Source: Alphaproteobacteria bacterium (lineage in GTDB: Bacteria; Pseudomonadota; Alphaproteobacteria; GM7ARS4; G965262615). Taken from it: 64,000 nucleotides of DNA. The stretch's first letter is position 1. Every line of letters begins with the position of its first letter. The stretch spans positions 416,001 through 480,000 of the forward strand of contig OZ253545.1 in NCBI GenBank assembly GCA_965262615.1, given 5' to 3'. A model generated the notes under the pieces. It had not been told where the DNA came from. It did not search any database and saw only the letters and a list, made by a program, of their open reading frames with translations. Positions 32,444-54,871 of the stretch are shown one piece after another. A program made the translations under genes and the position numbers.

Positions 32444-33172
32444 TCACAGAGGCGAGTTATAGTCTTCTAGTTCGCTGGTGAAATAATTCGTGCCGTAGAG
32501 TTCGCTGAAGGTTTTTTCGATGCGGTGCATTTTGACCATGCCCACATTGGGGGCGTACCACTCTTCGCTGGTGACTTCCACCTGCTCGGTTCCACTGCCG
32601 CGCGTGGTGCTAAAAGAAGTCGCGCCTGTGCCGATAATATGCAGACAATTGGAGAATTCTCCTGCCGCCACCCGCACGGTGGCATCACGACTCACCACTC
32701 TATAGTTCAGAGGCACAATGAGCTTGACCGATTCATTAAACAGGGGTTTTTCGCGAATGATAATGTAGGTGGTATCAATGATAGACCATGTGCTGTTTTC
32801 ATCAAGATTGGTCGCCATGACGGTGCGCGCCCCCTCCTCCCACTGCGGCATCCCACTGGGACGCTTCTGCAACGCCACTCTTTGAATGGCGTGATGGTCG
32901 TGACTGTAATAATAGATGAGTCCATTTTCGTGCAAAATGGGGGTGGCATTGAGTGAGTCGCCATTGGGGCGCGTGAGGGTGACCTCATCAAGGCTCATCC
33001 GCACGCTTTTATAGTTCTCGGTGGGGCTATATTGGGGCGCAAAGGTGATGCGATAGTGCCACTCATAGCCGGCGGTGAGGGGGAAATAAGCCGCCTCATG
33101 ACGCACCAACAGCACCACAAGAGGCACTGCCAGCAGCCACAAAAAACGCGCATTATTTTTCAGGAAGGACAT
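32444..33172 (-). CDS. Hypothetical exported/membrane-anchored beta-rich protein (DUF3108-like motifs)
   Basis: N-terminal hydrophobic segment, YFPL..G..W.Y, V.VAAGEF.NCL, EWYAPNVGMVK; start moved to MSFLKNN. Confidence 0.7.
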   Translation of the reverse strand: MSFLKNNARFLWLLAVPLVVLLVRHEAAYFPLTAGYEWHYRITFAPQYSPTENYKSVRMSLDEVTLTRPNGDSLNATPILHENGLIYYYSHDHHAIQRVALQKRPSGMPQWEEGARTVMATNLDENSTWSIIDTTYIIIREKPLFNESVKLIVPLNYRVVSRDATVRVAAGEFSNCLHIIGTGATSFSTTRGSGTEQVEVTSEEWYAPNVGMVKMHRIEKTFSELYGTNYFTSELEDYNSPL

Positions 33173-33668
33173 AGACGGGAAGATCATGGAACGATAGTTG
33201 AGGGGTTGCTTGAATGACATTCTGGTCGGTGATGCGTCCTTCTTGCATGCCGATGCGGGGTTTGTTTTCACCCATTTGCGGCTGTCCATTGGATATTTTT
33301 TGCAGAGCGTGGGCGACCTCTTGGTGTAACAATTCATCATAACGCAGGCTGTAGGAGCGAGGCTGGGTGTGACCGACACGCTCATCCATGTCGGTGATCC
33401 ACAAATAGACCGCGCCATCGTCTCCCGTGATGGAATTGGGCTCTTGAATTTCCGCCGCCACCAGACGAAAACGCGGCGGCAATGCGTCCGGCACGGGCCA
33501 GCCGCGCACCGCGAGTTGCGTCTCATAGTGAATGCCGTAAAACAGTGACAACAGAGCAATCAATGATGCTTTTTTCATCGCCGACCAATCGCTCTCCAGC
33601 AGCAAAAACAAAACAATTGCCGCCATGATGAGATAGCTGGTGATGAGTCCAAAAAACGAGAGTGTCAT
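33153..33668 (-). CDS. Hypothetical protein, 2 TM helices plus soluble domain
   Basis: Two N-terminal hydrophobic helices, then GWP, EP, YLW, PRSY motifs; ATGA overlap with upstream gene. Confidence 0.75.
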   Translation of the reverse strand: MTLSFFGLITSYLIMAAIVLFLLLESDWSAMKKASLIALLSLFYGIHYETQLAVRGWPVPDALPPRFRLVAAEIQEPNSITGDDGAVYLWITDMDERVGHTQPRSYSLRYDELLHQEVAHALQKISNGQPQMGENKPRIGMQEGRITDQNVIQATPQLSFHDLPVYVLPEK

Positions 33669-34273
33669 GATGGCAAATCCGGAGCGTACGAGACCAGTTG
33701 TTTTTCAAGAAAGTTCAAGTCCAACATAGCACCATTTCCACTGAGGGTGAAACGAAAAGCTGTTTTTTCTGCTCCTGTGCGCTCAAGGGTGACGGTGTCA
33801 TAATGGAGCACCTGAAGGGCGGGATTGACTCGTTCCAGCTTGACGGTCACCTCCACGGGCTCTTTGGTCTCCGACATGTAATAGTGGACATTGACCACAT
33901 ACTCGCCAGGCACAACGCCTCGCAGGGTGACGATTTCTTGATTGAGTTCATTGATGATGGTGGTTTCATTGTGTGTGGTGGCATCAAAGAGTTTTCCGCG
34001 ATCGTCACGGTCAAGATGGAGCAATCCGCCTTCTTTGTTGCGATACCAGATGAGGTCTCCTTGGGGCCCTTGCACCCACAGGTCAATATCGTCGGGGCTA
34101 CCGTCTTGCCAGGTGACCGAGATGATGTATTCGGCTTTGCGCTCCACATTGCCTCTGGTGACGATGGGATTCATGAAGATGACGGCGATAAAAAACAGGA
34201 AAGTGAATCCCATAAGGGCATTGAAAAGCAAATCGGTAAAGGGATCGCTGCGAATACGACGATGAGCGCGCAT
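33665..34273 (-). CDS. Single-TM protein with TM aspartate and YfaP/DUF2135-like domain
   Basis: DPFTDLLFNALMGFTFLFFIAVIFMNP, then VTW...DIDLWV.GP, LDRDD, PGEYVVNVHYY. Confidence 0.75.
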   Translation of the reverse strand: MRAHRRIRSDPFTDLLFNALMGFTFLFFIAVIFMNPIVTRGNVERKAEYIISVTWQDGSPDDIDLWVQGPQGDLIWYRNKEGGLLHLDRDDRGKLFDATTHNETTIINELNQEIVTLRGVVPGEYVVNVHYYMSETKEPVEVTVKLERVNPALQVLHYDTVTLERTGAEKTAFRFTLSGNGAMLDLNFLEKQLVSYAPDLPS

Positions 34274-34275
34274 GG

Positions 34276-34815
34276 CTATGACGAGGGTTGCGTGGCGATG
34301 AAATGATGGGTGATGCTTTCAAGAATGTAGTATTGTGCGCTTAAGAAGATGGCGGCGAGCAATCCGGTGAGGGTGGTATAGAGGGCGATGCCCATGCCTG
34401 CGCCCATGTCGGTCATGAGTTTTTGGGCGATTTCAATGTCAAGGCGCGTGATGGAAGCAAGGGATGACAGCATGAAGATAAAGCCCACAACCGTGCCCAG
34501 CAGTCCCAATTTGACGAGCACATCAACGATGAACCAGCCGAGTTCATAATGGTCATGAAGGTCGGTGTTGCTGTAGGGAAGTTGCAGGCGGTGATGATGA
34601 ATGGCGCGCGCCATCGTATAAATATGAAAGCCGCAATGCACCGTCATGGCGGTAAAAAGAATCATGATGACCACAGAAATATGACTGCGGTCGGCAATGA
34701 GCAGTGTGGTGAGCCATCCCTCGCGCCAGCAAATCCACAGGGCAAACACGGTGAATCCCAGCAAGCTCATCCAGAGGAGAAAGGGATGATAGTTAGGGCG
34801 CGCGATGGTTTTCAT
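34276..34815 (-). CDS. MotA/TolQ/ExbB proton-channel family protein (short form)
   Basis: LGLLGTVVG and GMGIALYTTLTGL helices; two N-terminal TM segments. Confidence 0.85.
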   Translation of the reverse strand: MKTIARPNYHPFLLWMSLLGFTVFALWICWREGWLTTLLIADRSHISVVIMILFTAMTVHCGFHIYTMARAIHHHRLQLPYSNTDLHDHYELGWFIVDVLVKLGLLGTVVGFIFMLSSLASITRLDIEIAQKLMTDMGAGMGIALYTTLTGLLAAIFLSAQYYILESITHHFIATQPSS

Positions 34816-37428: not shown

Positions 37429-39272
37429 TGACGGCAGCAGATATGGTGCGGGTGGTGATGGTGGGGCATGTGGATCATGGCAAATCGACTCTGTTGGGGC
37501 GACTGTTTTATGAGACCGATGCGCTTGCCGAAGGACGCTATGAAGCCATTCAAGAGATGTGCCGGCGGCGCGGCATGCCCTTTGAGTGGGCGTTTTTGAC
37601 CGATGCCTTGCAGGCAGAGCGCGATCAGGGCATCACCATTGACACCACACAGATTGCGTTCAAGACGCGTACGCGCCCCTACATGCTGATTGATGCGCCG
37701 GGGCATCTGGAGTTTTTACGCAACATGATCACGGGAGCCGCCACCAGCGATGCGGCTTTTTTGTTGATTGATGCCAAAGAGGGAATTCAGCAACAGACAC
37801 GCCGCCATGCGCGCCTTTTGGCAATGCTGGCGGTGGAGCAGTTTTTTGTGGTGATGAATAAAATGGACTTGGTCAATTTTGACCAAAAAATCTATCGGCA
37901 ATTAAAATCTGAGATGGAAGTGATTTTGCACGAACTGGGCATGACGGCGCGCGGCTTTATTCCAGTGTCGGCTCGTGAGGGTGATGGGGTGGCGGCGGCA
38001 TCAAAGCGTATGAGTTGGTATCAAGGCAAGAATTTGTTGACGGCACTGGATGATTTTGCGCCGCCGCGCGGCAAAGAAAAATTGCCGCTGCGTCTGATGG
38101 TTCAGGATATCTATAAGTTTGACGAACGGCGCATTATTGCAGGACGGGTTGAGCAAGGCACGGTTCGTGTGGGCGATGAGGTGTTGTTTTTGCCCAGTGG
38201 CTTGCAGGGCACGGTGCATCGTTTGGAGCAATGGTCGTCCGGCAAGACCGAGCCTTTGCAGCGGGTGCGTGCGGGCGGTTGTTTTGGCATGACGCTGCGG
38301 CAGCAGATTTTTGTGGAACGCGGGCATATTGGGTGTCACAAAAAAGACTCGCCCGCTCTGACTCATGAATTGACGGCGCGACTTTTTTGGCTGAGCAAAG
38401 AGCCGTTGCGGCAGGGGGCTTGTTATGATGCCGTGTTTGGAACGGCACGCCATCAAGTGGAGGTGCTGGATATTTATGATTACGATGAGACGGGACAGAA
38501 AGCATCATCGGCGGTGGCACAGCTGCCGACCCATGCCATTGCCGATGTGCGTCTGCGCAGCACGGGCTATGTGGTGTATGACCACGGGGCGCGCTTTATT
38601 GTGCGCGACGGCTATGAGATTGCGGGGGGCGGATTGGTTTTGGACGGCGTGTCATTGCCTCAGCAACATGGTGAAAAGAAGCATATTTTTGTGGCACACA
38701 CACGGGTGAAGGATGACGACCGTCACAAGCGCAATGGTCATAAGGGCGGCGTTTTCTGGCTGACGGGATTATCCGGTTCGGGCAAGAGCACCATTGCCAC
38801 CGAATTGGAGCGACAGTTGTTTGTGAAGGGATATCAGGTGTTCATGCTGGATGGGGACAATTTGCGCCATGGATTGAATGAAGATTTGGATTTTAGTGCG
38901 GCATCACGGCGAGAGAACATTCGCCGTGCCGGTGCGGTGGCGGCATTGATGGAGCAGGCGGGCATGGTGGTGCTGGCGGCATTCATCTCGCCCTATCGGG
39001 ATGATCGCATCACGGCGCGGCGGGCGGCACGGTCGTTTCATGAAATTTACATCAAAGCCTCGCTGGATACCTGTGAGGCGCGCGATCCCAAAGGACTCTA
39101 TCAAAAGGCGCGCGCGGGCGATATTACTGACTTTACCGGCATTTCCGCGCCCTATGAAGCACCTGAAAATCCCGAATGCATCGTGGACAGCGACCAATGG
39201 ACGGTGGAACAATCGGTGGGAGAATTGATGGCGTATATTGAAAAAAACCTTGATTCGGTGAGGCGGTCATGA
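37425..39272 (+). CDS. cysNC: Bifunctional sulfate adenylyltransferase subunit 1 / APS kinase
   Basis: [18 protein letters not shown] GTPase motifs; C-terminal [26 protein letters not shown]. Confidence 0.95.
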
Positions 39273-42200
39273 CGGCACAAAAAAACAAACAGCCCGTCCT
39301 CACATTGTCCTACGGTGTTGATTTTGCCGACCTCTACCAGCAAGAAGGGTTGCAAAAGATTGATGACATTTTTATGGGGGAACTAGAGACAAAGGATGCC
39401 GCTTTGGCATCATCTTTGCGTGGCGCGCGAGCAACGCCTGCCGACTATGAAGGCAAGGAGGGCGCCGAATTATTGTTGGCGGTGGCGGCGCATCTGGATG
39501 ATTTTGTGGCGCGCCTGTTTGCCATTGAAAAAGAGACGGCATCCCTTGCCCATCACCATGCTTCTCATGACGATTTATACACGGTGCGGCGATTGTTCAT
39601 TCAAAAGCAGGCGGTGCGGCGGCATCGTCATGACGAGGTGAAAGACTGGGATGGGGATGTTTTGGCGCGCACCCTCAATGGCTGGATGAAGCAATCGGGG
39701 GCACATGTGGATGAGACTGTTTATGCCCATCATGTTCTGCGATGGCTTGGGGATGAATCTCGCTACGAGGAGGCTCTTGATGCGGCGCGCCGCTATGGCG
39801 CGTGGGCGAGTTTGACGGCGGCGGGACGGCGGCGGCATGAGGGAGATGTGGTTTTTGTGGTGCCGTCACCTGTGGATGCCATGCACAGAGTGGCTTTGTT
39901 GCCTCTGCCCGATGCTCATGGCGCACAAGGGTACGAAAATTCTCATTTACGCTCACGCTTGGGATTTTCTTTGACCGATCAAGGCTATGACACCCGTCAG
40001 GCACTGGCGGAGGTGTCTTATTGCATTTTGTGTCACCATCAGGGCAAGGATTCGTGTTCTAAGGGCTTGGCTGCCAAAAAAGATGAGGAGGGACTCTTTC
40101 ATCGCAATGTTTTTGGCGAAGAGTTGGCGGGGTGTCCTCTTGAGGAGAAAATATCCGAGATGCATGAGGCAAAAAAGAATGCGTTGTCCATCGGGGCATT
40201 GGCGATTGCGTGTGTTGATAATCCCATGCTGGCGGGAACGGGGCATCGCATTTGCAATGACTGCATGAAGGCGTGCATTTATCAAAAACAGGATGCGGTG
40301 GATATTCCTCAGGTGGAATCGCGCGTTCTCAAGGATGTGTTGTCTCTGCCGTGGGGCTTTGAGATTTATTCGCTGCTGACTCGTTGGAATCCTCTCAATT
40401 ATGCTCGTCCTGTGCCTCGCCGTGCCAGTGGTTATAAGGTTTTGGTGGTGGGACTGGGTCCTGCGGGCTACACGCTGGCACACCACCTGATGAATGACGG
40501 ACACGATGTGGTGGCGGTGGATGGTCTTAAGATTGAACCGTTGCCCTCTCATTTGAACGGGGTTTGTCATGATGGTACGCGCGTCGCCTTTGAACCCATC
40601 CATGATGTGTCCGCATGGCAAGAAGACCTAGATGAGCGGGTGAGTGCGGGCTTTGGCGGCGTTGCCGAATATGGCATCACTTCTCGTTGGGATAAGAATT
40701 TTTTGCTGGTTTTGCGTTTGTTGCTGGAGCGGCGCGCCTCGTGTGCCATTTATGGCGGTGTTTTGTTTGGCGGCACACTGACTTTTGCGGATGCCTTTGC
40801 TATGGGGTTTGACCACATTGCCTTGTGCATGGGAGCGGGACGACCCACCGTGCTGGATTTGCCCAATGGTTTGGCGCGCGGGGTGCGTCAGGCATCGGAC
40901 TTTTTGATGGCACTGCAATTGACGGGCGCGGCGCGCAAAGACAGTGTTTCCAATTTGCAATTGCGCCTGCCTGCGGTGGTCATCGGCGGCGGACTGACCG
41001 CCATTGACACGGCGACAGAGGCTTTGGCGTATTATGTGCGTCAATGTTTGAAGTGGCTGCATCGCTATGAGTCATTGGGAGAAAAAGCTCTCGCAAACAT
41101 TTGGGATGAGGAAGAGCGCGCCATCGCCGATGAATGGCTCGCTCACGGGCGCGCTCTGCAAGACGAAATCACCGCCGCACAAAAAGAAGGGCGCGCGCCT
41201 CATTTCACTCCTTTGTTGCGCTCATGGGGTGGTGTCACCATTGCCTATCGTCGGCGCATGGTGGATTCTCCCGCCTATCGCCTGAATCCCGAAGAGGTGG
41301 ATCTCGCCATGGAGGAAGGCATTTCCTTTATGGAATTGGTGTCACCACAGCACATTGAACTGGATGAGTGGGGGCATGCGGCTCGCCTTGATTTAGAAAA
41401 ACAGCGGCTGGATGACAATCACCGTATTCACGGCAGTGGCGAGACAATATCCATTGCCGCCCGCGCCATTCTTGTGGCTGCGGGAACAAAGCCCAACACG
41501 GTGCTTGCCCGTGACACAGACAATGGATTGCAGATGGATGGCAATTATTTTCAATTGCTGGATGATGATGGCAAAGCCAAGAAGGTCACATGGTCTGTCA
41601 AGACTATCGGGGGCGAATACGGCTTTTTGACCTCTCTCAGAGATGATGGGCGCGGGGTGAGTTTTTTCGGTGATTTGCATCCCTCCTTTGCGGGCAATGT
41701 GGTCAAAGCGATGGCATCGGCAAAGCATGGGTATCCTGTGATTGATGGGGTGCTGCGCCGCCGTGCCCCTTGCGGCGATGACTTTGCTCAGCTGCGTCAT
41801 CATTTGGATGACTCTTTGCGGGCGCGTGTGACGCAAGTCAATCGTCTTGCGCCTGCCATTGTGGAGATTGTGGTGCGTGCGCCTCTGGCGGCGCGGCATT
41901 TTCGTCCTGGTCAATTTTATCGGTTGCAGAATTTTGAGTCGTCATTGCATAGCGTCGGTGGCACGCGTCTTGGAATGGAGGCTTTGGCATTAACGGGGGC
42001 ATCGGTGGATTTGCAACAAGGCACTCTTTCCACCATTGTGCTGGAGATGGGCGGCTCATCGGACTTGTGCCGCTCTCTCAAAGCGGGGGATGATGTGGTT
42101 TTGATGGGACCCACCGGCACCCCCACAGAAATTCCTCACGATGAGACTGTGCTGCTGGTGGGGGGCGGATTGGGCAATGCGGTGTTGTTTTCCATTGCCG

Positions 42201-42781
42201 AGGCTTTGCGCGCTCACAATTGTCGTGTGCTTTATTTTGCCGGCTATCGCACCCATGACAGCCGCTACAAAGAGGAACAGATTTTGAAATCGTCCGATGT
42301 GGTGGTCTGGTGCTGTGATGAAGGTGTTTTTTCCACCACGCGCGCTCAAGATAAAAGTTTTCACGGCAATGTTGTGGAAGCCATGATTGCCTATGGCAGT
42401 GGTGATTTGGGCACTGTGACCATTGAGCTCAAGGATGTCACCCGCATGGTTGTGATTGGCTCTGATGCCATGATGGCGGCGGTGGCGTTGGCGCGTCATA
42501 ACGAATTGCGTCCTTTTTTGCGCTGTGACCATCTTGCCATCGGCAGCATCAATTCGCCCATGCAGTGCATGATGAAAGAGATTTGTGCCCAATGTTTGCA
42601 GCGGCATGTGGATCCCGTTAGCGGGGAAGAGCGGGTTGTTTTTTCGTGTTTCAATCAGGATCAGCCTTTGGATCGGGTGGATTTTTCTTGTTTGGCGGCG
42701 CGTTTGCGGCAAAATTCGGTGCAAGAAAAGCTCACCGCTCAATGGTTGGCACGGCAGACGGCTCTTGACATGCACGATTGA
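39269..42781 (+). CDS. Large Fe-S flavoprotein: GltD/NfnL-like module fused to a PyrK/NfnS-like FAD/NAD-2Fe2S module
   Basis: CILCH...[14 protein letters not shown]; VVGLGPAG; [10 protein letters not shown]; [27 protein letters not shown]...C. Confidence 0.85.
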
Positions 42782-44920: not shown

Positions 44921-44932
44921 GAAATTATAGTG

Positions 44933-46261
44933 ATGTTTACTAAGCCTCTTACAGACATAGATGAAGACGATATTCAAGCTCTTGTGAATCATAAGGAGCA
45001 AGAGAGTGCTGAATTGGAATTCAAGAGAGACATTGAAAGCACCGACAAAGGAAAAAAGAAATTGGCGAAACATGTCTCAGCAATGGCGAATGCCAATGGT
45101 GGCATCATCATTTTTGGAATTGAAGAAAAAGAAAGCAAGGCAGACAAGCTCATTGGCATTGATGAAATGGTTGGCGACCAGCCTGTAGGCGAATTCGTCA
45201 ATAATGTATTGATTTCAAGGGTTCGCCCGCGCCTTGCCGTTCAGCCACAAGCGGTCAAGCTGGCAAATGGAAAGGTTGTATTGGTGTTGCAGGTTTCAAG
45301 AATTCCTTATCGTCCTCACATGGTGCTGGCTGAGAATGTCTATTATGTGAGGCATAATTGTAGTGTCGCCCTCGCCGATGAGCATGAGGTGCGCGCAATG
45401 GTTCTTGAGAGCAAGTCGTCATCCGATGAAGTGAAAGAATTTCTCAAAAAAAGAAAGCTTGATGACAAAGACAGAGAAGATTTTGCTTTGACACCCCTTG
45501 CAAAAAGAATGAGGGAAAATCCTCTCATGGCGAAGCAAATTCCTGAAGGTCATGAAGGCAAGCCATTTGTGCTTTTTGCCAGCTGCCCCAGACATCTTGA
45601 AGAAAGAGTAAATATTGCATCAGGGGCTTTTTATGAGAAGGTCAATAAAAGCAGTTGTTTTAACCTATTTGGTGAAAAAATTGATTTTTTTTATCTGGCT
45701 AGACAGTCACGCATAACCTCCGATAGCCTATCCCGAGTCGCTTACGATGACGAGGGTGAGAGCGAAATTCGCAGATATGTAGAAATTTGCAGAAACGGGT
45801 ATGTGGAAAGAGGATTGTGTCGCGATATTCTTCTTCGGAAGAATGAAAATTCTGAATTGTTATTTCGCACTGCGCGCTTCGTGGCATATTTTTGGGCTTA
45901 TATGACATTCATCAATCGGCTATACAGGGCAATCGGCTATTTTGATGAATTAAATATCATCGTTGCTTTGTCAGATACAAAGGGAATCGCCGCGGCGTTA
46001 TTTGGAAATAAAGATCAAAATCATTATGATGATGACTCTTATGTATCTCGTGCAGGCATTGCACAAGAAGGGAATGCTCTCATTGAAAGTTCTGTTGTTA
46101 TTTCGGAATTGGGGGATGAACAAATAGAAGCAATTGTCAAGGAAGTTGTTGGGCGCGTGTTAAATCATTTCAATAAAAGTATTGAGAAATGCCTTGATGA
46201 AGAAGGAAAATTTGATGAAGAGCGTTTGAAAATGGGTATTCGTGATATGTATTTGCCTTGA
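44933..46261 (+). CDS. Schlafen/AlbA_2 domain protein with unknown C-terminal domain
   Basis: ESAELEFKRD, VSAMANANGGIIIFGIEE, RPH...YYVRH; AT-richer than flanks. Confidence 0.82.
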   Translation: MFTKPLTDIDEDDIQALVNHKEQESAELEFKRDIESTDKGKKKLAKHVSAMANANGGIIIFGIEEKESKADKLIGIDEMVGDQPVGEFVNNVLISRVRPRLAVQPQAVKLANGKVVLVLQVSRIPYRPHMVLAENVYYVRHNCSVALADEHEVRAMVLESKSSSDEVKEFLKKRKLDDKDREDFALTPLAKRMRENPLMAKQIPEGHEGKPFVLFASCPRHLEERVNIASGAFYEKVNKSSCFNLFGEKIDFFYLARQSRITSDSLSRVAYDDEGESEIRRYVEICRNGYVERGLCRDILLRKNENSELLFRTARFVAYFWAYMTFINRLYRAIGYFDELNIIVALSDTKGIAAALFGNKDQNHYDDDSYVSRAGIAQEGNALIESSVVISELGDEQIEAIVKEVVGRVLNHFNKSIEKCLDEEGKFDEERLKMGIRDMYLP

Positions 46262-46382
46262 CAAAAAAATTGGTGGTTGTTTTGTTGTCTTGACTTTGTC
46301 CACAGATGTATCCATTTAGTGGGTGTCATGAACACGAACCTTTGTGGGAGGGCGAGAGATGAACGCGCGTAGTGGCGAGTCT

Positions 46383-46829
46383 ATGGGCAATCGCGATCCT
46401 TTTGTCATCGCCAATTATTTGATTGAGAATTATGATGGCGGTCTTAGACCTTTGCAATTAATCAAGTTGGTCTATATCGCGCACGGGTGGTTTTTGGCTT
46501 TTACAAACGGCATTCCGCTTTTGCGGGAGCCTGTTCAGGCGTGGAAGTATGGTCCCGTTGTGCCGAGTCTCTATCATGCCGTCAAAGGAAGCAGAGAAAT
46601 TGTGAAGCTTTTGCCAGGGGCACAGAGCTGGGATATTTTGCATCAAGATGAGCGTAAAATTTTGGACGAGACGCTTGAGCTCTATGGTCATTTTACGGGA
46701 ACGCAACTGTCATCTTTGACTCATCAAAAGGACACTCCGTGGGCTGAAACATGGGATGGCACTTTCTATAATGATATTCCTAATGAATTGATTAGGGATT
46801 ATTATTTGCGGAAAAAAGAAGAAAATTAA
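46383..46829 (+). CDS. Panacea (DUF4065/SocA/GepA) domain antitoxin-like protein
   Basis: IANY, LQLIKLVYIAHGW, QAWKYGPVVPSLY, LSSLTH..DTPW; start uncertain (46344-46383). Confidence 0.88.
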   Translation: MGNRDPFVIANYLIENYDGGLRPLQLIKLVYIAHGWFLAFTNGIPLLREPVQAWKYGPVVPSLYHAVKGSREIVKLLPGAQSWDILHQDERKILDETLELYGHFTGTQLSSLTHQKDTPWAETWDGTFYNDIPNELIRDYYLRKKEEN

Positions 46830-46848
46830 TTTATTGTCAACAAGATTG

Positions 46849-47184
46849 ATGATGAAAAAAGATGAACAATATGTAAAAGGGGTATCGTCCCCTGATGATA
46901 CGGATGAAAGCAAGGCGGATGAAGAAAGCCTTGCTCAAGCGAGGCGATACAGATTTGCAAAAGAAAAAAGAAAAGAGGATAAAAGAAAGCTTATTCATTT
47001 TTTGAGCATGACGCTTATCGGGCTTGCCTTTGCAATTCTTTTCGCTATTCTTATTTTGGGTGCTTCTTATTTGTATTATGGGGGTGAGTCATTAGTCGTT
47101 CAATTTCTTGGTGCTACGGCTGGTTCTATGGTGGGTTCTTTCATAGCTTATCTTGTATGGAACATATATCGCCATGATATCTAA
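46849..47184 (+). CDS. Small protein with charged N-terminus and 2 TM helices; candidate toxin partner
   Basis: Directly downstream of the Panacea gene; two C-terminal hydrophobic helices. Confidence 0.65.
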   Translation: MMKKDEQYVKGVSSPDDTDESKADEESLAQARRYRFAKEKRKEDKRKLIHFLSMTLIGLAFAILFAILILGASYLYYGGESLVVQFLGATAGSMVGSFIAYLVWNIYRHDI

Positions 47185-47202
47185 TCGTAAGGATTTTGCA
47201 TT

Positions 47203-48126
47203 ATGGAGATTTTGGTTTTAGGTTCTGGAGCGGGAGGCGGGTCGCCGCAATGGAATTGTGCGTGTGATGTCTCGCGAGCGGTACGGGATGGCGATGCGCC
47301 GCGCCGCACCCAATCATCGGTGGCGGTGTCGGCGGATGGCAACCAGTGGTTTTTGCTCAATGCCTCGCCCGATCTCGGCACGCAAATCTGCGATAACGCC
47401 CCCTTGCATCCTCAAGAAGTTCCCCGTCATAGCCCCATCAAGGGGGTGATTGTCACCAATGGCGATGTGGATCATGTGGCGGGATTGCTCACTCTGCGGG
47501 AGAGTCAGCCGCTCGCATTGTATGGCACAACGCGCGTGCTGAATTTTCTCGCCGACAACAGCATCTTCAATGTGCTCAACAAAGACTATGTGACGCGTCG
47601 TCCCCTCACTTTGCATCAGCCGTTCAGCCTCACCGACCATGACGGCAATGACAGCGGCTTGGAGGTGGAAGCCTTTGCGGTGTCGGGCAAAATTGCCCTG
47701 TGGCTGGAGGATGAGTCCAAAGGTGACAATCTCGGCACTGAGGAGGAAGACACCATCGCCCTGGTCATACGGGATGCCAATTCGGACAAGCGATTTTTCT
47801 ACATTCCCGCCTGTGCCACCGTGACCGATTCCTTACGCCAACGCCTTGAGGGTGCGGCTCTGGTGTTTTTTGATGGCACGGTATGGCACGATAATGAGAT
47901 GGCACAGGCAGGCGTGGGCACAAAAACTGGACAGCGCATGGGGCATATTTGTAACGCCGGAGACAACGGCGCAATGGCATCCTTGGCACCATGTGATATA
48001 GCTCGCAAGGTTTTTATTCATATCAATACCACCAATCCCATTTTGCTGCCGTCATCGCCTGAGCGCAAGCAGGTGGAGGCAAACGGATGGGAAGTGGCGA
48101 ATGATGGTATGCATTTGACACTGTAG
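47203..48126 (+). CDS. pqqB: PQQ biosynthesis protein B
   Basis: LGSGAGGGSPQWNC.C, RTQSS, NASPD, DVDHVAGLLTLRE, RMGH, IHINTTNP. Confidence 0.96.
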   Translation: MEILVLGSGAGGGSPQWNCACDVSRAVRDGDAPRRTQSSVAVSADGNQWFLLNASPDLGTQICDNAPLHPQEVPRHSPIKGVIVTNGDVDHVAGLLTLRESQPLALYGTTRVLNFLADNSIFNVLNKDYVTRRPLTLHQPFSLTDHDGNDSGLEVEAFAVSGKIALWLEDESKGDNLGTEEEDTIALVIRDANSDKRFFYIPACATVTDSLRQRLEGAALVFFDGTVWHDNEMAQAGVGTKTGQRMGHICNAGDNGAMASLAPCDIARKVFIHINTTNPILLPSSPERKQVEANGWEVANDGMHLTL

Positions 48127-48195
48127 CTGTGGCTTGATGACTCGTCACCATTCAGGAATTGCTGGATTTGCTGGAAGCAGACGCAAAGTGAGGTA

Positions 48196-49068
48196 TCATC
48201 CAGTAATCAATGAGCGAAAGAGATGAGCATCAGGAATTTTTGTTTTATGCCCGTAAAATAGAATTTCTGCCCCCTTTTTCATTTTATAAGCAAAGTGCTT
48301 CAGAAGATATTTCTCTGACAAAGCCCAACGATACATTTTCCTTATTTGTGGCACATCGTCATACGACACAATCCAGTGAAAATGCTTCATGGATTTTATC
48401 TTGTCCGCAACCTTCTTATGCTGTTCATCATTGTAATGATTCATATACAGCGAACTTCCCTTTGAATAATAGGGGGGGTCAAAATAAAAAATCGTGTTGT
48501 CACCCCATTTGTCCATATCCTCAATGAGCTCTAAAGCGTCTTTGTGATGGAGCGTGATGTTTTTTTTATGCTTGGCTATCAGTCGTATTCTCTCTATGAG
48601 GTTTGTTTTATTGAAGCGACAATCCATTTTGTAATTTCCCTGTTGAGCAATGCCGCCAATAACGCCCGCATTGATAATGCCAGAGCGATTGGTTCTGTTG
48701 AGAAAAAAAGTGGAAAAGCCTAACTCCAAAAGGTCAGCTTGAGCCTTAAGATTAGCTTGAGCCTTGTTTTTTTGTATCTCTTTCGCTTTCCGCCAATGAG
48801 GCATTGTCACGGGTGTTTTTTCTATGCACTCACACAATTCATCCGTGCGATTTAACACACAATACCAAAAAGCATAAATTGAGCTGTCGTAATCGTTGAT
48901 TGTGATTGTTTTGACCTTACCCTCAATCAATAAATACAATGCCACCGCCGCACCGCCAACATAAGGCTCTACATAGTGTCCATCAACGCCATTATCAACG
49001 CATATTTGAGCAATCAAGCGCGCCAATCTATTTTTGCCACCTGGATATCTCAACGGTGAGTAAAACAT
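48196..49068 (-). CDS. DNA adenine methyltransferase (Dam/D12 class)
   Basis: SPLRYPGGK, EPYVGG, NDYD, FFLNRTNRSG, FDPPYY, VSYD. Confidence 0.93.
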   Translation of the reverse strand: MFYSPLRYPGGKNRLARLIAQICVDNGVDGHYVEPYVGGAAVALYLLIEGKVKTITINDYDSSIYAFWYCVLNRTDELCECIEKTPVTMPHWRKAKEIQKNKAQANLKAQADLLELGFSTFFLNRTNRSGIINAGVIGGIAQQGNYKMDCRFNKTNLIERIRLIAKHKKNITLHHKDALELIEDMDKWGDNTIFYFDPPYYSKGSSLYMNHYNDEQHKKVADKIKSMKHFHWIVSYDDVPQIRKMYRWALSEKYLLKHFAYKMKKGAEILFYGHKTKIPDAHLFRSLITG

Positions 49069-49074
49069 ATCATG

Positions 49075-50493
49075 TCACTTTTTGTCTTTCTGGATTTGAT
49101 TGTACACTATTTCAAAAAATTCCTGCAGGTCGTTCCAACACACCCTCAAATCATTTTCAAGCGGTTTCACATCGTTATCGTGGACATAATAGTGAAAATC
49201 TTCCACAGACAAAAAACGTGTATTTTTGTTGGTAAGATTTTTTACCTTCCTAAATTTTTCACTCCCTATTCCATGTTGATTTTCCAAGTGAGCTGCAACC
49301 TTTTCAATCTTTTTTGTAAGTGCTGTTTTTTTCTCGAAGGAAAAGCCGTATTTTTCGGCGTAAGAATTCACTGTGCCTTCTAAAAAAACCCTAAAAAGAA
49401 CTGCCACTGCATTTGGTGTATCTCTCACCACCAAATGCTTTTTTAATTCTAAATAGATATCATTTACCTTTCCTTTCTCAATTCTTAATGAGAAATTATC
49501 TGGTATTAGATGTTTTCTTTCTGTGCTCCGAGGATTTTCTACAGGTTTGGGGGGGATGACAGGTTTGGGGGGCAGTGGCTTCACTGCTGGTTTTTTCTTT
49601 TGCTGTGATTGCGCGTTCAGATTGGCTATTTCTTCATTAGCCCTTGATATAGATTCATCGTCTATACTATTCAGATATTTTTTTATGTCCTCTTTCAAAT
49701 TAAGAGTACGGCTATTCAAAGCATCTTTCTTACCAACACTTTGATTGGTAAAGATTTCTTTATAGGCTTTTCCATTTACAACATTTAGAATAATAACCTT
49801 CAATTTGTTTTCAAAATTGTCAGTGCCTATTGATAGTTTCCCATTTTCAATCTTGAACTGAAAAAATTCTTTGGACACATCGCGGGTGAGTATTCTCTCG
49901 AATGTATAAGAGAAGCCTCTACTAAATACCTTTTGTTTTATGCCCTCTGGCATATTTAAATCATTAACAATTTTGCGAATTCCTGTTTGCAAAATCGTCT
50001 TATCATCTACTTCTCCAATCCTTTGCTTAAAATTTGCGTTTTCAAAAGAACCCCAATTAAGGTGATTATTTCCATATAAGTGCTTTATTTTAACTTGATC
50101 TATAGCAATTTTTTCATCTTTAGTTACCAAGCAATCCATTGGAAAATCACTTCCAATTTGTGTTGTATCCTTCCCTTCTTCAAAAATTACTTTAACCCTC
50201 TCGTCATCCAAAAGAGATGGGTTCAATAACAATTTGTAAATCATCAAGCGACGATTTCCCTCGTAGCAGATTTTTTCAGTTCCTGAATCAAAAATTATGA
50301 GGGCTTCTGCGGGCGGAAGGTGAAAATACCTAATGATAGCTTCTGTTAGTTCTATCATTTTGTTTTTTCGGGCTTTTTCACTAAACATATAGTGGATAAG
50401 CTCTTTTTCAGACTTTCCAGAAAGGTCGTCAGGAAAGCGGGGATTTCTATCCCATAAAATCATGTCGGTGACCTTAATACTTTCTCTATTCAC
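49075..50493 (-). CDS. ParB/Srx-like N-terminal domain plus C-terminal HEPN-like domain protein
   Basis: NPRF and EGNRRL (ParB-box-like); Pro/Lys linker; LFRVFLE and FHYYVH helical C-terminus; AT-rich. Confidence 0.72.
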   Translation of the reverse strand: MNRESIKVTDMILWDRNPRFPDDLSGKSEKELIHYMFSEKARKNKMIELTEAIIRYFHLPPAEALIIFDSGTEKICYEGNRRLMIYKLLLNPSLLDDERVKVIFEEGKDTTQIGSDFPMDCLVTKDEKIAIDQVKIKHLYGNNHLNWGSFENANFKQRIGEVDDKTILQTGIRKIVNDLNMPEGIKQKVFSRGFSYTFERILTRDVSKEFFQFKIENGKLSIGTDNFENKLKVIILNVVNGKAYKEIFTNQSVGKKDALNSRTLNLKEDIKKYLNSIDDESISRANEEIANLNAQSQQKKKPAVKPLPPKPVIPPKPVENPRSTERKHLIPDNFSLRIEKGKVNDIYLELKKHLVVRDTPNAVAVLFRVFLEGTVNSYAEKYGFSFEKKTALTKKIEKVAAHLENQHGIGSEKFRKVKNLTNKNTRFLSVEDFHYYVHDNDVKPLENDLRVCWNDLQEFFEIVYNQIQKDKK

Positions 50494-50683
50494 AATTAAA
50501 GCCCTTTCTGTGATTGGCTTGCCATTTCATCTTATAAATACAATTTTTTATGCCCTCATGCAATACAACTCGCACACGCGCCACGTCCCCCGCCTGTGGG
50601 ATTGGCAATATTCTGACGGCATTCATCTGACGTTGTCGCTGTTTTTTGTTCATTGTGCCATCATATTGGTGTATTATAACGGC

Positions 50684-51511
50684 ATGATGGATGATTATGT
50701 GAGAGACACAACCGTCTATGTGACCGATGACCTCCCCGTTGTTCCCAACGATGATGGGGTGCGTGCCTTGTCGGAACAGGAGTTTGAAGCCCGTCTGCGC
50801 GCCATTGGGGCGCGCTGTTATCATGACCAGCATCCCTTTCATCATTTGCTGCATGAGGGCGCATTGAATAAGGGGCAGGTTCAGGCGTGGGCACTCAATC
50901 GCTATTATTATCAGATATCCATTCCCATCAAGGACAGTGCGTTGCTCTCGCGTATGCGGAATCGTGAGCTGCGTCAGGTGTGGCTCAAGCGCATCATGGA
51001 TCATGACGGCAGAGCCAAAGAAGAGGGCGGCATCATGCGCTGGTATCGTCTGACCGATGGCTTGGATTTGCCACGCGCCTATGTGCGCTCCACCGCAGGC
51101 ATTCTGCCCGCCACGCGTTTTGCCGTGGATGCCTATGTGCGCTTTGTGCGCGAGCGCAGCTTGCTGGAGGGAATCACCTCCTCTTTGACTGAACTGTTTG
51201 CACCGAAGATTCATCAAGAGCGCATCGTTGGCATGCTGGCGAACTACGATTTTATCAGTGACGATGTGATGGCGTATTTCAAAAAACGCCTTGATCAAGC
51301 CACCGAAGATGCCGATTTTGTGCTCGCGTATGCCTTGCGTCATGCCCGCAGTCGTGAGCAACAAGAAGCCGTGTGTGCGGCGTTGCGCTTCAAGACCGAT
51401 GTTTTGTGGGTGATGCTGGATGCACTTTACCATGCTTACATCACGGGCGGGGTTCCGCTCGGAGCTTTCAAACCTGAGGATTTTGATGAGAGATCGCGTC
51501 ATTCTTACTGA
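50684..51511 (+). CDS. pqqC: Pyrroloquinoline-quinone synthase
   Basis: YHDQHPFH, WALNRYYYQ, IPIKD, RIMDHDG, FAVDAY, SSLTELFAP, FKTDVLW.MLDAL; start uncertain. Confidence 0.95.
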   Translation: MMDDYVRDTTVYVTDDLPVVPNDDGVRALSEQEFEARLRAIGARCYHDQHPFHHLLHEGALNKGQVQAWALNRYYYQISIPIKDSALLSRMRNRELRQVWLKRIMDHDGRAKEEGGIMRWYRLTDGLDLPRAYVRSTAGILPATRFAVDAYVRFVRERSLLEGITSSLTELFAPKIHQERIVGMLANYDFISDDVMAYFKKRLDQATEDADFVLAYALRHARSREQQEAVCAALRFKTDVLWVMLDALYHAYITGGVPLGAFKPEDFDERSRHSY

Positions 51512-51791
51512 GTCTCATGTGGTGTCGTTTGCCTCCCATGCGCGTTTGCACTTCAATGAGCCGCGCCAGCAGTGGGTGATTCTGGGGCCCGAGCGGTTGC
51601 TTGAGCCCGATGAGACGGCGGTGGCGATTTTGCGTCTGTTGGATGGCACACGCTCCATTGCCATGATGGTGGATAAGCTGGTCGCGCAGTATCGTGATGC
51701 ACCGCGTGAGCAAATCACTAAGGATGTGTTGTCTTTGCTTCAGGGACTACTAGATAAGGGGTTTATTTGTCATGAGCCAGTTACAGTCTGA
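51486..51791 (+). CDS. pqqD: PQQ biosynthesis peptide chaperone D
   Basis: WVILGPER, AILRLLDG; between pqqC and pqqE. Confidence 0.9.
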   Translation: MRDRVILTESHVVSFASHARLHFNEPRQQWVILGPERLLEPDETAVAILRLLDGTRSIAMMVDKLVAQYRDAPREQITKDVLSLLQGLLDKGFICHEPVTV

Positions 51792-52919
51792 TATTCAACA
51801 ATCATCTTTGTCCTCGTTGGGGATTGGCGCGCCGCTTGCGTTGCTGGCGGAGTTGTCTCACCGTTGTCCCTTGCAGTGTCCCTATTGTTCCAATCCGTTG
51901 CATTTGGAAGAAAAGTCGCTGGAGCTGGAACTGACAGATTGGAAGCGTGTGTTTTCTCAAGCGGCGGCGTTGGGGATGCATCAGGTGCATTTGTCGGGAG
52001 GCGAGCCCACCGTGCGCAAGGACTTGGAAGAAATGGTGGCTCATTGTCGCGAGGTGGGGCTTTACACCAATCTCATCACATCGGGCGTTTTGTTGGATGA
52101 GGCGCGTTTGCGCTCATTGGCGGCGGCGGGCTTGGATCATGTGCAGATTAGTTTTCAGGATACCAATGAAGCCAATGCCGATCGCATTGGAGGATATGAA
52201 GGCGGTCACGCTAAAAAAATAGAAGTGGCGGGATTGGTGCGCAAAGTGGGATTGCCTTTGACTATCAATGCGGTGATGCATCGGCAGAATTTGGACTCGC
52301 TGGAAGACTTTCTTGCCATGGCGGTGGATTTGGATGCGGCGCGCATTGAAATCGCTCAAGTGCAATACTATGGATGGGCACTCAAAAACAGGGCGGCGTT
52401 CATTCCCACCTATGACCAATTGCAGCGCGCCACCGCCATTGTGGAAAAAGCCCGCAAAGATTTACAGGGCGTTTTGGAAATTGACTATGTCGTGCCTGAT
52501 TATTACGCCAAGCGTCCCAAAAACTGCATGGGCGGATGGGGACGCCAGTTCATGAATATATCGCCGTCTGGTGATGTTCTGCCGTGCCATGCGCACAGAC
52601 GCTGTCTCATTTGAAGTTTGATTCTGTGCGGGAGCACTCGTTGGAATGGATATGGCATCATTCGGAGGCTTTTAATCTCTATCGCGGCACATCATGGATG
52701 CCTGAGCCGTGTCAGAGCTGCGATCGCAAAGAGATTGACTGGGGCGGCTGTCGTTGTCAGGCGATGGCACTCACGGGGGATGCCGCCAACACCGATCCCG
52801 CCTGTGAGCTGTCACCGCTTCATGAGGAAATTTTTGCCATGGCGGCACAAGAAGCCGCGAGCGATGCTCCTGAATTCATCTATCGCCGTTTGGGGGTGCG
52901 TTTTAATCAGGCGGGGTGA
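51772..52919 (+). pseudogene. pqqE: PqqE radical SAM enzyme split by a 1-bp frameshift near 52593 (real lesion or sequencing error)
   Basis: LAELSHRCPLQCPYCSNP, CMGGWG in the first frame; SPASM motif C..C.....D.GGCRCQA continues in the other frame; one added G restores CHA-A-QTL. Confidence 0.85.
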
Positions 52920-53434: not shown

Positions 53435-53503
53435 GCATCCCCTCGTGTGATGTTTAGTCTGTAACAATTGATAGGATTTTGTTACATTCCTCAAAACACG
53501 GGA

Positions 53504-54106
53504 ATGATGATGACGGAACTCTTATCTTTATGGAAACTGGGCGGCGGCATCATGGTGGTGCTGTCATTGTGTTCGGTGTGGCTGCTGGCGATGGTGTTAT
53601 ACAAATTGTGGCAATGGCGATGGGTGCGCAGTCACTGCGAGGAGTCCATTCGTCGGGTGATGGAAGGCGCGAGTGAGCGTTCTCGTCAGCAATTGATCAA
53701 GGATCTGAGTGGCATTCCTCATGTGGCGGCACTGGCATGTGTTCGCATTGCGAGCACCAATGGCAGACGCGTGTCATGGGAATGGGGGGCGGTGCCGATT
53801 TTGTTGGAGGAATCTCGTTGGCTACGGCGATTTTGTCCCTCACTGGAGCTGCTGGCGCACTTGTCACCTCTGCTGGGATTGTTGGGAACGGTGCTAGGCA
53901 TGATTGATGCTTTCAGCATGTTGGAACAGGTGGGAGACCAAGCCGACCCATCGGTTTTTGCGGGAGGCATATGGAAGGCTTTGTTGACAACGGCAATGGG
54001 GCTGGTGGTGGCGATTCCCGCTTTGGCGGCGTTCAATTTTTTTGATGAACGCGCGAGCCGCGCCGAACAGTTCATGGAGCGCACCGCACGAGGACTGTTC
54101 TCATGA
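53504..54106 (+). CDS. exbB: ExbB/TolQ proton channel protein
   Basis: GGGIM..L, SPLLGLLGTVLGMI, GGIWKALLTTAMGL. Confidence 0.88.
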   Translation: MMMTELLSLWKLGGGIMVVLSLCSVWLLAMVLYKLWQWRWVRSHCEESIRRVMEGASERSRQQLIKDLSGIPHVAALACVRIASTNGRRVSWEWGAVPILLEESRWLRRFCPSLELLAHLSPLLGLLGTVLGMIDAFSMLEQVGDQADPSVFAGGIWKALLTTAMGLVVAIPALAAFNFFDERASRAEQFMERTARGLFS

Positions 54107-54483
54107 GCTTTCTGTTTGGCGCAAAAAAGAACAAGCGTGCACCCAATTGGACACCATTGGTGGATGTCATTTTTCTTTTGCTGATTTTTTTCATGGTGAC
54201 CAGCTCCTTATCACACCCATCGGCACAGCCACTGGCGGCAACGGCCCATGGCAGTGGACAAGAGCCCATTCCTCTCTTGTTGGTGCGCCGCGATGGCTCT
54301 TTTGTGCTGAAGGGAGAGGAGATGAGTGAGTCGCAATTGCGTCTTGCTCTGCAGCCCGCTTCATTGGCTCGCGGCGTGACCGTGACGGTGGAAGAGGGCA
54401 TTACAATCGGTCGCATGGTGCGCGTGACCGATTGGCTACGGCGAGCTGGCATTGCGCCGTTGTTTTTCGCCGCAAAGCCGTGA
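54103..54483 (+). CDS. exbD: ExbD/TolR family protein
   Basis: TPLVDVIFLLLIFFMVT (conserved TM Asp). Confidence 0.9.
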   Translation: MSFLFGAKKNKRAPNWTPLVDVIFLLLIFFMVTSSLSHPSAQPLAATAHGSGQEPIPLLLVRRDGSFVLKGEEMSESQLRLALQPASLARGVTVTVEEGITIGRMVRVTDWLRRAGIAPLFFAAKP

Positions 54484-54487
54484 TGTC

Positions 54488-54871
54488 ATGCTGTTTGAAC
54501 CGTCCACGAAAAAGCAAGACAGCGGATTGAGTCTGATTCCGCTGATTAATATTGTTTTTTTGTTGTTATTGTTTTTTTTGGTGAGTGGCTCATGGCGAGA
54601 CTCGGTGGAGCGAGATGTGTCACTGCCCAGCAGTGACCAGCCATTGGAATCGTTGCATGATGGCGTGGCGGTGGTTTTGACTCATGATGGCACATGGCAC
54701 ATGGCAGGGCAGACGGTGACACTGCCGCAGCTGACACAGCAATTGCAAAGAGCGGGGCGCATTAACATTTATGCCGATGAGGCGGCGGCGGCATCCTCTT
54801 TGCTGGCATTACTGGCGGCGATGGAATCATCACAGTCTCAATTGTTTCTCATTGTGCGGCGCAGTCCATGA
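54488..54871 (+). CDS. exbD: Second ExbD/TolR family protein (TM Asp replaced by Asn)
   Basis: IPLINIVFLLLLFFLV, IYADEA. Confidence 0.85.
   Translation: MLFEPSTKKQDSGLSLIPLINIVFLLLLFFLVSGSWRDSVERDVSLPSSDQPLESLHDGVAVVLTHDGTWHMAGQTVTLPQLTQQLQRAGRINIYADEAAAASSLLALLAAMESSQSQLFLIVRRSP

Follow-up and report, generated by a model that had tools for sequence, protein, structure and literature searches.

A conserved gene triad encoding a putative ion-driven inner-membrane complex of the MotAB/ExbBD type with a TerD-like subunit

Results

A gene triad of the MotA/ExbB kind

Four genes, designated g1 to g4, occupy positions 32444-34815 on the minus strand of the 64,000-nucleotide stretch of contig OZ253545.1 analyzed here (hereafter the window). 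The first three, g1-g2-g3, are a conserved core and constitute a conserved, unnamed family within the known MotA/ExbB kind of ion-driven motors. We favor, with somewhat better than even confidence, the view that their products assemble in the inner membrane into an ion-driven complex of the MotAB/ExbBD/TolQR type, probably powered by protons and arranged as proposed below. By sequence comparison, g1 and g2 appear to be the A and B components of a distinct family of the MotAB/ExbBD type. What is new here is the architecture of the B subunit, an obligatory third subunit, optional accessory genes, and wide carriage by phages.

Direct reading of the strand gives four open reading frames (ORFs) that abut or overlap one another (Table 1). 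The g1/g2 junction is TAG-CC-ATG with a 2-nt gap, g2 and g3 share an ATGA overlap, and g3 and g4 overlap by 20 nt. The initial annotation, made from the letters of the window, had described four tightly coupled minus-strand genes with these coordinates and junctions, and every detail of that description is as it stated.

The channel subunit g1

The g1 protein falls in Pfam MotA_ExbB (PF01618; 40.4 bits against a cut-off of 22.9, E = 3e-10), a search of the whole genome agrees, and by sequence it is a true member of the MotA/TolQ/ExbB family. It contains the motifs LGLLGTVVG and GMGIALYTTLTGL. Four hydrophobic segments are found, which we take to be MotA-like transmembrane (TM) segments, and the loop between the second and the third is only ~25 residues long. 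Channel helices with a minimal cytoplasmic domain are as initially described.

In the g1 family alignment (n = 50), D42, G104, L105, G107, T108, G111, F112, G140, M141, A144, L145, T147, and T148 are invariant. The pore-lining Gly and Thr residues are also kept in 18-20 of the 21 viral copies, T108 and T148 in 20 each. By hhalign, g1 aligns with the ExbB encoded in the window over the last two helices, with a probability of 85% (E = 6.6e-6).

The g1 family profile, searched against PDB sequences, matches ZorA (8vvn) at E = 8.5e-4, MotA (8gqy) at 1.1e-3, and TolQ at 0.29, with MotA structures overall between 1e-3 and 1e-2; g1 alone has no match there at E ≤ 1. The ZorA models give 13.4 bits (NCBIfam ZorA_4, cut-off 500), 12.5 bits (ZorA_2, cut-off 100), and at best 13.9 bits (PADLOC). 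The 179 residues of g1 should be compared with the 383-699 positions of the ZorA profiles, and the long ZorA-type tail is absent. Because the profile is about equally distant from ZorA, MotA, and TolQ and the ZorA models score far below their cut-offs, the sequence places g1 on a separate branch within the superfamily.

The short length of g1 should be noted. In its homologues, the loop leading to the third helix has ~65 extra residues, and the C-terminal tail is longer. This shortening, together with a Leu in place of the lipobox Cys of g4, would fit a window copy that is a decaying, non-working remnant. However, none of the four tightly coupled frames is interrupted, and g1 keeps every invariant pore residue. 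A 96%-identical g1 of 179 aa is documented by a 10-member cluster, g2 has relatives at 98%, 83%, and 79%, and the g1 of phages (mostly 136-207 aa) is equally short with the ring residues kept. Since the near-identical cluster exists and the phage proteins are as short, the length of g1 is not an artefact, and we give very little credence to a decayed copy. A metagenome scan for close relatives of g1 returned only one spurious match of 30 residues.

The Asp-bearing subunit g2 and its TerD-like head

The g2 protein, which carries the motifs DPFTDLLFNALMG, W..DIDLWVQGP, and PGEYVVNVHYY, matches no Pfam, NCBIfam, or PADLOC family. In the AlphaFold2 model (predicted local distance difference test, pLDDT, 93.1), a TM helix (residues 11-34) is followed by an all-beta sandwich (~residues 46-197). 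Asp14 (D14) in the helix is Asp in 110 of 112 diverse relatives and in all 21 viral copies. An Asp at the start of the helix had been proposed from the sequence, and the proposal stands for the second Asp of the DPFTD segment, D14, but not for the first, D10, which is Asp in just 9/112. W55, D62, D64, D90, G93, and E113 are invariant in the alignment of 112 sequences, and the viral copies keep D14, D62, D64, D90, D91, and E113 in 21/21. Ahead of the helix, the N-terminal segment is positively charged (mean 2.3 Lys plus Arg), and the head is therefore predicted to face the periplasm, in the N-in, head-out orientation of B subunits. When g2 is aligned with the ExbD of the window by hhalign, its DPFTDLLF lies on TPLVDVIF, Asp on Asp, at a probability of only 5.6%.

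The closest folds to the model are those of TerD proteins. VIA-align gives TerD 2qz7_B (Z 9.7, root-mean-square deviation (rmsd) 3.8, 132 aa) and TerD 2kxt (Z 9.3, rmsd 3.7, 134 aa), and the next row has a Z of 5.6. Foldseek finds TerD at E = 1.5e-4, and the search of BFVD with the model returns only TerD-like and unnamed phage proteins. ExbD/TolR (PF02472) gives no match to the g2 of the window at E ≤ 1 and one among the 112 members (E = 0.005), and OmpA-like PF00691 has no match to g2 at E ≤ 1. As modeled, g2 joins a membrane helix of the ExbD/MotB type to a TerD-like head, with neither an ExbD nor an OmpA domain, the absence of both being as first described. The conserved Asp in the helix, the conserved Gly and Thr residues of g1, and the lack of these two domains in g2 agree with the separate motor family that the initial annotation had put forward. 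The likeness is one of predicted fold, and g2 is not a filed member of the TerD family. Ca2+ binding is known for TerD proteins, and by analogy the head of g2 probably binds Ca2+.

The head had been likened at first to YfaP/DUF2135, a likeness that the scores do not support. PF09906 covers 25 residues of g2 with a sub-threshold score of 12.7 bits (cut-off 22, E = 0.14), and the TerD-like fold is the better match (Z 9.7). DUF2135 matches one of the 112 members (E = 0.0022). The ESM Atlas cluster nearest to g2 is auto-named YfaP (DUF2135), and Pfam finds no common family in that cluster. When the 112 relatives were scanned singly against Pfam, no family matched more than two of them.

The g2 family is large, with 4267 proteins at E ≤ 1e-3 among 4330 candidates and, at 50% identity, 1847 clusters, 1195 of them at E ≤ 1e-10. 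The g2 profile gives only chance-level rows against PDB sequences, and in PHROGs g2 has one weak match to an unannotated family.

Conservation of the triad in cellular genomes

Cellular conservation was assessed in 90 loci, namely nine from related genomes, 80 from one-per-species genomes, and the window. They include two pairs of duplicates (L012 = L031, L013 = L068), and the 80 genome loci were seeded from a narrower alignment and are biased to the clade of the window. The loci were scanned with iterated hidden Markov models (HMMs) of the module genes.

The g2 gene was found in 88 of the 90 loci. In all 87 loci with both genes, g1 is co-oriented with g2 (median gap 3 nt), and the arrangement is therefore not due to chance. 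The g3 gene follows g2 on the same strand in 85/88 loci; in the three others the sequence stops within ~400 nt past g2. The conserved core is thus g1-g2-g3, and of the set of four genes described initially, the part that holds is the association of g3 with the g1-g2 pair. The fourth gene, g4, does not belong to the fixed set. Of the 76 loci with full flanks, just 21 have it, and it alternates with a YkuD/DUF302/vWA-FHA set. The order ctaA-g1-g2-g3-g4-thrB-rnhA is whole in three genomes of 1.4-1.8 Mb. In a locus from a gammaproteobacterial metagenome-assembled genome (MAG; L076, 2952-4015), two tandem copies of g3 are found.

The family is distributed sporadically. A g2 protein query matches 10 of 41 related genomes, and the g2 profile at E ≤ 1e-10 matches 13 of 401 genomes sampled over the phylum (13 of the 329 high-quality ones), a distribution that fits an accessory rather than an essential role. 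Seven megaplasmids or chromids of Azospirillum carry g2. Carriers of the module include marine Alpha- and Gammaproteobacteria, Azospirillum, and phages, those of Rhizobium among them. Co-occurrence with pqq or defense loci, which had been raised as a possibility, did not materialize. No pqq gene lies beside the triad in the 90 cellular neighborhoods (clustered) or the 21 viral ones, and these neighborhoods showed no link to known defense systems. The pqq genes in the window are 16 kb distant from the triad.

The third subunit g3 and its C-terminal Lys

The g3 protein belongs to no Pfam, NCBIfam, or PHROG family. Its AlphaFold2 model (pLDDT 80.3) shows a TM hairpin (helices 2-25 and 30-54) and a beta-beta-beta-alpha-beta-beta domain, in line with the two TM segments and soluble domain noted from the sequence. 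Foldseek gives weak rows of the OB-fold-like type (best E 0.098; B subunits of AB5 toxins, SSB, and ribosomal proteins), and the VIA-align match is limited to the helical hairpin. The soluble domain of the model is possibly OB-like. In 66 sequences, the loop between the helices contains on average 1.98 Lys plus Arg and 0.06 Asp plus Glu, and the N-terminus is without Lys or Arg. From this charge pattern, the soluble domain is predicted to be placed in the periplasm. No conserved His is present among the invariant or near-invariant columns of g3, and Pfam finds no TonB_C or TolA domain.

The C-terminus of g3 should be noted, since it is related to a possible attachment to the cell wall. The g3 of the window ends in LPEK-COOH. 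The tail is exactly P-[DE]-K-COOH in 73 of 82 distinct cellular sequences, and PDKG in four more. Of the 76 loci with full flanks, 46 have a co-oriented YkuD L,D-transpeptidase gene upstream, within the operon, and the catalytic His and Cys are intact in the proteins that these genes encode. The genome of the window has one YkuD gene, located elsewhere, and a YkuD gene is found in 5/5 related genomes that bear the triad, one of the five being below the cut-off.

YkuD-type enzymes attach Lpp to peptidoglycan, using the epsilon-amino group of the Lys at the C-terminus of Lpp. The available passages on OutB, an inner-membrane protein of Dickeya, describe a C-terminal Lys that is linked to peptidoglycan by the Lpp L,D-transpeptidases; this single Lys is necessary, and the residues preceding it tolerate changes (PMC12274547). 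The conserved C-terminal Lys, the operonic YkuD gene, and the precedents of Lpp and OutB together suggest, by analogy, that g3 may be covalently attached to peptidoglycan through its C-terminal Lys.

g4 and the alternative accessory genes

The g4 protein gives 24.3 bits against Pfam DUF3108_like (PF21347; cut-off 27, E = 3.4e-5). Its family profile weakly matches the PDB entries 4fvs ('putative lipoprotein', E = 1.1e-3) and 3fzx (E = 0.016) over the C-terminal 55-60 residues only. A lipobox Cys at position 22 is nearly invariant among the homologues, and it is at this position that the window has Leu. By sequence, g4 is an exported, DUF3108-like, lineage-specific accessory. In one locus from an alphaproteobacterial MAG (L028, 7141-9983), three g4 paralogues lie downstream of g3, with one ORF on the opposite strand after the first.

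In the 76 loci with full flanks, g4 and an operonic YkuD gene never occur in the same locus, nor is g4 ever found with the DUF302 and vWA-FHA genes. Most of the loci with YkuD also have a gene for a DUF302 lipoprotein, and in most of them the downstream gene encodes, according to Pfam, a protein composed of a signal peptide, a vWA domain, a TM segment, and an FHA domain. g4 is one of two alternative accessory sets, the other being YkuD/DUF302/vWA-FHA.

Many gammaproteobacterial loci (in the series L020-L099) have a divergent histidine kinase gene (HAMP-HisKA-HATPase) and a gene for a sigma-54-dependent response regulator beside YkuD-DUF302-g1-g2-g3, on its upstream side, and a cytochrome b561 gene often lies between the divergent regulators and the operon. 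This neighborhood suggests sigma-54 control of the YkuD-DUF302-g1-g2-g3 operon.

Carriage by phages

A tblastn search with g2 found 30 phage records in GenBank, 27 from Rhizobium, 2 from Sinorhizobium, and 1 from Serratia, with identities of 31-35% and E values down to 2e-28. In Rhizobium phage RHph_N34, the product of the 148-aa gene before the g2 homologue reaches Pfam MotA_ExbB (23.0 bits, cut-off 22.9). In phage 16-3 (22651-24512 of the record), p040 is the g2 homologue, p042 matches the g3 HMM (E = 3e-5), and an ORF spanning p038 (3196-3687 of the locus) weakly matches the g1 HMM (E = 1e-3). Though 16-3 is a well-known temperate phage, its p038-p042 are unannotated. IMG/VR gives 18 contigs with g2, some of which are possibly cellular.

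All 21 viral loci contain both g1 and g2. In the same set, g3 is detected in 17/21 by HMM or 20/21 by BLAST cluster, and no further flanking gene is common to these loci. The triad of the Rhizobium phages in GenBank lies among early and middle genes (gyrase, late sigma factor, and recombination nuclease). PHROGs contains no family for g1, g3, g4, or their phage homologues. Two of the three ESM Atlas clusters nearest to g2 are mostly viral. A FastTree phylogeny built from 214 g2 sequences groups the window with a clade of 88 in all (support 0.985) that contains no viral sequence, and viral g2 sequences appear at about ten separate places among the metagenomic representatives; the tree is midpoint-rooted, and no direction of transfer is claimed.

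Phage carriage, in the 30 GenBank records and the 18 IMG/VR contigs, raises the question of whether the triad acts in Zorya-like phage defense of cells, or in counter-defense or exclusion by phages, with a MotAB-like unit sensing perturbation of the envelope and relaying the signal. The patchy distribution (10/41 relatives, 13/401 genomes of the phylum), ZorA as the top PDB match of the g1 profile, and the variable accessory genes, including the vWA-TM-FHA signaling protein, are consistent with such a role. However, the ZorA scores are far under the cut-offs, g1 has no ZorA-type tail, and no conserved nuclease or effector gene is found in the cellular or viral neighborhoods. The fixed synteny with housekeeping genes (ctaA ... 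thrB-rnhA) in genomes of 1.4-1.8 Mb and the absence of viral members from the clade of the window also argue against it. We therefore regard a defense function as quite improbable.

Motor and Tol/Ton genes of the source genome

The genome of the window (1.54 Mb, 98% complete) has just two PF01618 genes, exbB and g1. Both of its ExbD genes are inside a conventional exbB-exbD-exbD-tonB set, which also lies in the window (Table 1). The triad is not the Ton system of the cell, since the genome has its own Ton set, as had been pointed out initially. A TolB_N match is absent from the 1.54-Mb genome, and a canonical TolQR-TolB set was not found with Pfam. One OmpA-domain gene and one TonB-dependent receptor gene are present.

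This gene content, with two PF01618 genes, ExbD only in the Ton set, no TolB_N match, and one OmpA-domain gene, would agree with a triad that replaces the missing Tol-Pal motor in a reduced genome, coordinating outer membrane and peptidoglycan at division as a variant of envelope tethering. Contrarily, the triad is also found in phages, both roles could fall to the single exbB-exbD-exbD-tonB set, and the Pfam model TolB_N may miss a divergent TolB. A substitution for Tol-Pal appears to us decidedly improbable.

Discussion

Proposed mechanism

Motility, import, envelope stability, secretion, and defense are all served by adaptations of one 5:2 ion-driven engine, as in MotAB, ExbBD/TolQR, GldLM, and ZorAB. 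In the assembly proposed for g1-g2-g3, by homology with the solved PF01618 complexes, a ring of g1, pentameric by analogy, would surround the two TM helices that a g2 dimer contributes. The passage of ions would depend on protonation and deprotonation of D14 of g2 beside the ring of T108, T147, and T148 of g1, and these protonation cycles would turn the g1 ring relative to the g2 axle. Because the cytoplasmic domain of g1 is almost lacking, in the window as in phages, the output is expected in the membrane or the periplasm. Candidate outputs are g3 and the TerD-like head of g2, and the work would be delivered between these two. The TM hairpin of g3 probably docks outside the ring, as TonB and TolA do, and an L,D-transpeptidase would cross-link the C-terminal Lys of g3 to peptidoglycan to give a fixed anchor. 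g4 would be an optional periplasmic accessory of this lineage, and phages may use a minimal version of the module during infection. The results establish the membership of g1 in its family, the conservation of D14 and of the ring residues, the predicted folds, the gene order, and the carriage by phages. We infer the 5:2 stoichiometry, the rotation, and the ion type, as well as the binding of Ca2+, the link of g3 to peptidoglycan, and the role in the cell; for the last of these, envelope tethering, tensioning, or remodeling is our guess.

Several observations weigh against this proposal. In the family itself, D14 is missing in 2/112 relatives of g2, and the distribution is sporadic (13/401 genomes). 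The alignment of the g2 TM helix with that of ExbD is not significant (probability 5.6%), because the helix is too short for significance. The likeness to TerD is by fold only, with a TerD Pfam match in 0/112 g2 members at E ≤ 0.01, and the OB-like view of g3 hangs on a Foldseek E of ~0.1. The g1 of the window is without the ~65 cytoplasmic-loop residues and the tail of most cellular homologues, and its activity could be altered. As for the peptidoglycan link, the window and other alphaproteobacterial loci have no operonic YkuD gene, the PEK tail is missing from viral and distant g3 sequences, and the tail is acidic, not basic. The passages on OutB further state that >20% of the periplasmic proteins of Escherichia coli end in Lys (PMC12274547).

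A gated ion channel or sensor, not rotary, would be a different use of the same subunits. In that case g1-g2 would leak or conduct ions under the control of the Ca2+-binding TerD-like head and g3, serving envelope or ion homeostasis in cells and a change of membrane potential in phages, for example in superinfection exclusion or lysis timing. The near absence of a cytoplasmic domain in g1, which leaves no obvious rotor interface, the head fold of g2, which is that of a Ca2+-binding protein family, and the position of the triad among early and middle genes in Rhizobium phages are compatible with such a channel. However, a g3 with a conserved periplasmic tail is hard to explain in a simple channel. 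In addition, the structurally studied PF01618 members matched by the g1 profile are all in 5:2 motors; to our knowledge, each of MotA, PomA, TolQ, and ZorA that has been studied structurally is one part of such a motor. We think a gated channel unlikely, and the ion-driven complex of the MotAB/ExbBD/TolQR type is the reading that we prefer.

A bolder version of the preferred reading is possible but doubtful. The triad would then be a new class of proton-driven envelope motor, in which g3 is welded to peptidoglycan by a dedicated L,D-transpeptidase, the axle has a Ca2+-binding TerD-like head turning in the periplasm, and stripped phage versions without the Lys tail rewire the host envelope.

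Comparison with known systems

The systems closest in function are ExbB-ExbD-TonB and TolQ-TolR-TolA. They share with the triad a PF01618 A subunit whose pore helices have the Gly and Thr residues seen in g1, a B subunit whose single TM helix bears an Asp near the cytoplasmic end, tightly coupled genes, and a third membrane-anchored protein with a periplasmic domain. On the other hand, g2 has a predicted TerD-like beta-sandwich in place of the ExbD/TolR fold, and g1 has four hydrophobic segments and, in the window, almost no cytoplasmic domain, unlike ExbB and TolQ. The third protein also differs. The available passages of a paper in Mol Biol Evol 2025 define TonB and TolA transducers by a His motif of the SHLS type (PMC12204202), whereas g3 has a TM hairpin and neither a TonB_C/TolA domain nor a conserved His.

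The closest system in concept comes from the same passages, which describe TolQ-like genes paired with genes for vWA proteins that bear an Asp-carrying transpore helix, named 'TPH-vWA' (PMC12204202). As in the triad, a MotA/TolQ-like gene stands there without an exbD, tolR, or motB neighbor, and an ExbD-like helix with a conserved Asp is fused to an unrelated periplasmic domain (PMC12204202). In comparison with what these passages report, the g2 domain is TerD-like in its predicted fold rather than vWA, the partner is a single gene and not a heterologous pair, and the triad has an obligatory third gene, g3, and phage carriage. The passages mention neither TerD nor a g1-g2-g3 triad. In the available sections of a 2025 survey of MotAB, heterogeneous 'generic ion transporters' are reported (PMC12505986), and a TerD-like B subunit is not described in those sections.

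The MotAB and PomAB stators resemble the triad in that the g1 profile matches MotA, the B subunit has a TM Asp, and a peptidoglycan-anchored element is proposed here. They differ in the torque-generating cytoplasmic domain, which g1 does not have, and in the OmpA-like domain, which is absent from g2. The source genome has no other PF01618 gene able to be a flagellar stator. With ZorAB, the triad shares the top PDB match of the g1 profile, a sporadic distribution, and a link to phages; in contrast to ZorAB, it has sub-cut-off scores, no long ZorA tail, and no effector genes of the ZorC/D type nearby.

The head of g2 is like TerD (2qz7 and 2kxt) in its predicted fold over 132-134 residues and in loops rich in conserved Asp. 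TerD proteins are soluble and cytoplasmic, whereas the g2 head is membrane-anchored, predicted to be periplasmic, and without a sequence match to the TerD Pfam model. g3 is like Lpp and OutB in the conserved C-terminal Lys, on an inner-membrane protein that is predicted to face the periplasm, and in the operonic YkuD gene (46/76). It differs from them in its acidic P-D/E-K tail in place of the basic R-K or K-K and in the absence of YkuD from the operon of the window, and its own link to peptidoglycan is a putative one.

In open-access papers and bioRxiv, supplements aside, no description of the g1-g2-g3 triad was found; DUF2135 together with MotA appears in no paper within this scope, and TerD with TolQ in one irrelevant paper.

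Neither g2 nor g3 has a Pfam model, despite the wide spread of the family. With a channel subunit of ~150-180 aa, the triad is a compact version of the engine and is apt for studies of its minimal requirements. If true, the peptidoglycan link would represent a novel mode of stator anchoring, and g3 would be a second case of an inner-membrane protein welded to the wall. The carriage by phages points to a step of infection that depends on the host membrane potential.

Surroundings of the triad in the window

The start of g1 (ATG) overlaps the 3' end of an upstream COX15/CtaA gene. A homoserine-kinase-like APH gene begins a few bases past the g4 stop and is followed by rnhA, and inspection of the sequence revealed no convincing terminator between g4 and the APH gene. 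The coordinates of the features are given in Table 1.

Table 1 Genes of the g1-g4 locus and other features of the window
Feature	Position	Strand	Length	Remark
g1	34815..34276	minus	179 aa	ORF reading
g2	34273..33665	minus	202 aa	ORF reading
g3	33668..33153	minus	171 aa	ORF reading
g4	33172..32444	minus	242 aa from ATG	Longest ORF begins further upstream at TTG
Schlafen AlbA_2 protein	44930-46261			Member of the likely island
SocA/Panacea antitoxin-domain protein	46344-46829			Member of the likely island
ORF without family	within 44930-50493		116 aa	Member of the likely island
Metallo-beta-lactamase-fold protein	within 44930-50493			Member of the likely island
D12-class N6-adenine methyltransferase	48196-49068			Member of the likely island
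Protein without Pfam family	49075-50493		472 aa	Adjoins the D12-class methyltransferase
exbB-exbD-exbD-tonB set, conventional	53468-55413	plus		Window gene annotation by Pfam

The region 44930-50493 is likely to be a defense or mobile island. Its G+C content falls to 0.386 at 48001-50000, compared with ~0.53 elsewhere.

The pqqC, pqqD, and pqqE-like genes are found at 50462-52919. The radical-SAM ORF there is only 280 aa long, and the next ORF, of 111 aa (52584-52919), overlaps it and has no Pfam match. The pair may represent a split or frameshifted pqqE, or a mis-chosen start.

A protein of 1170 aa is encoded at 39269-42781, and its sole Pfam match at E ≤ 1e-5 is Pyr_redox_2, over residues 389-769.

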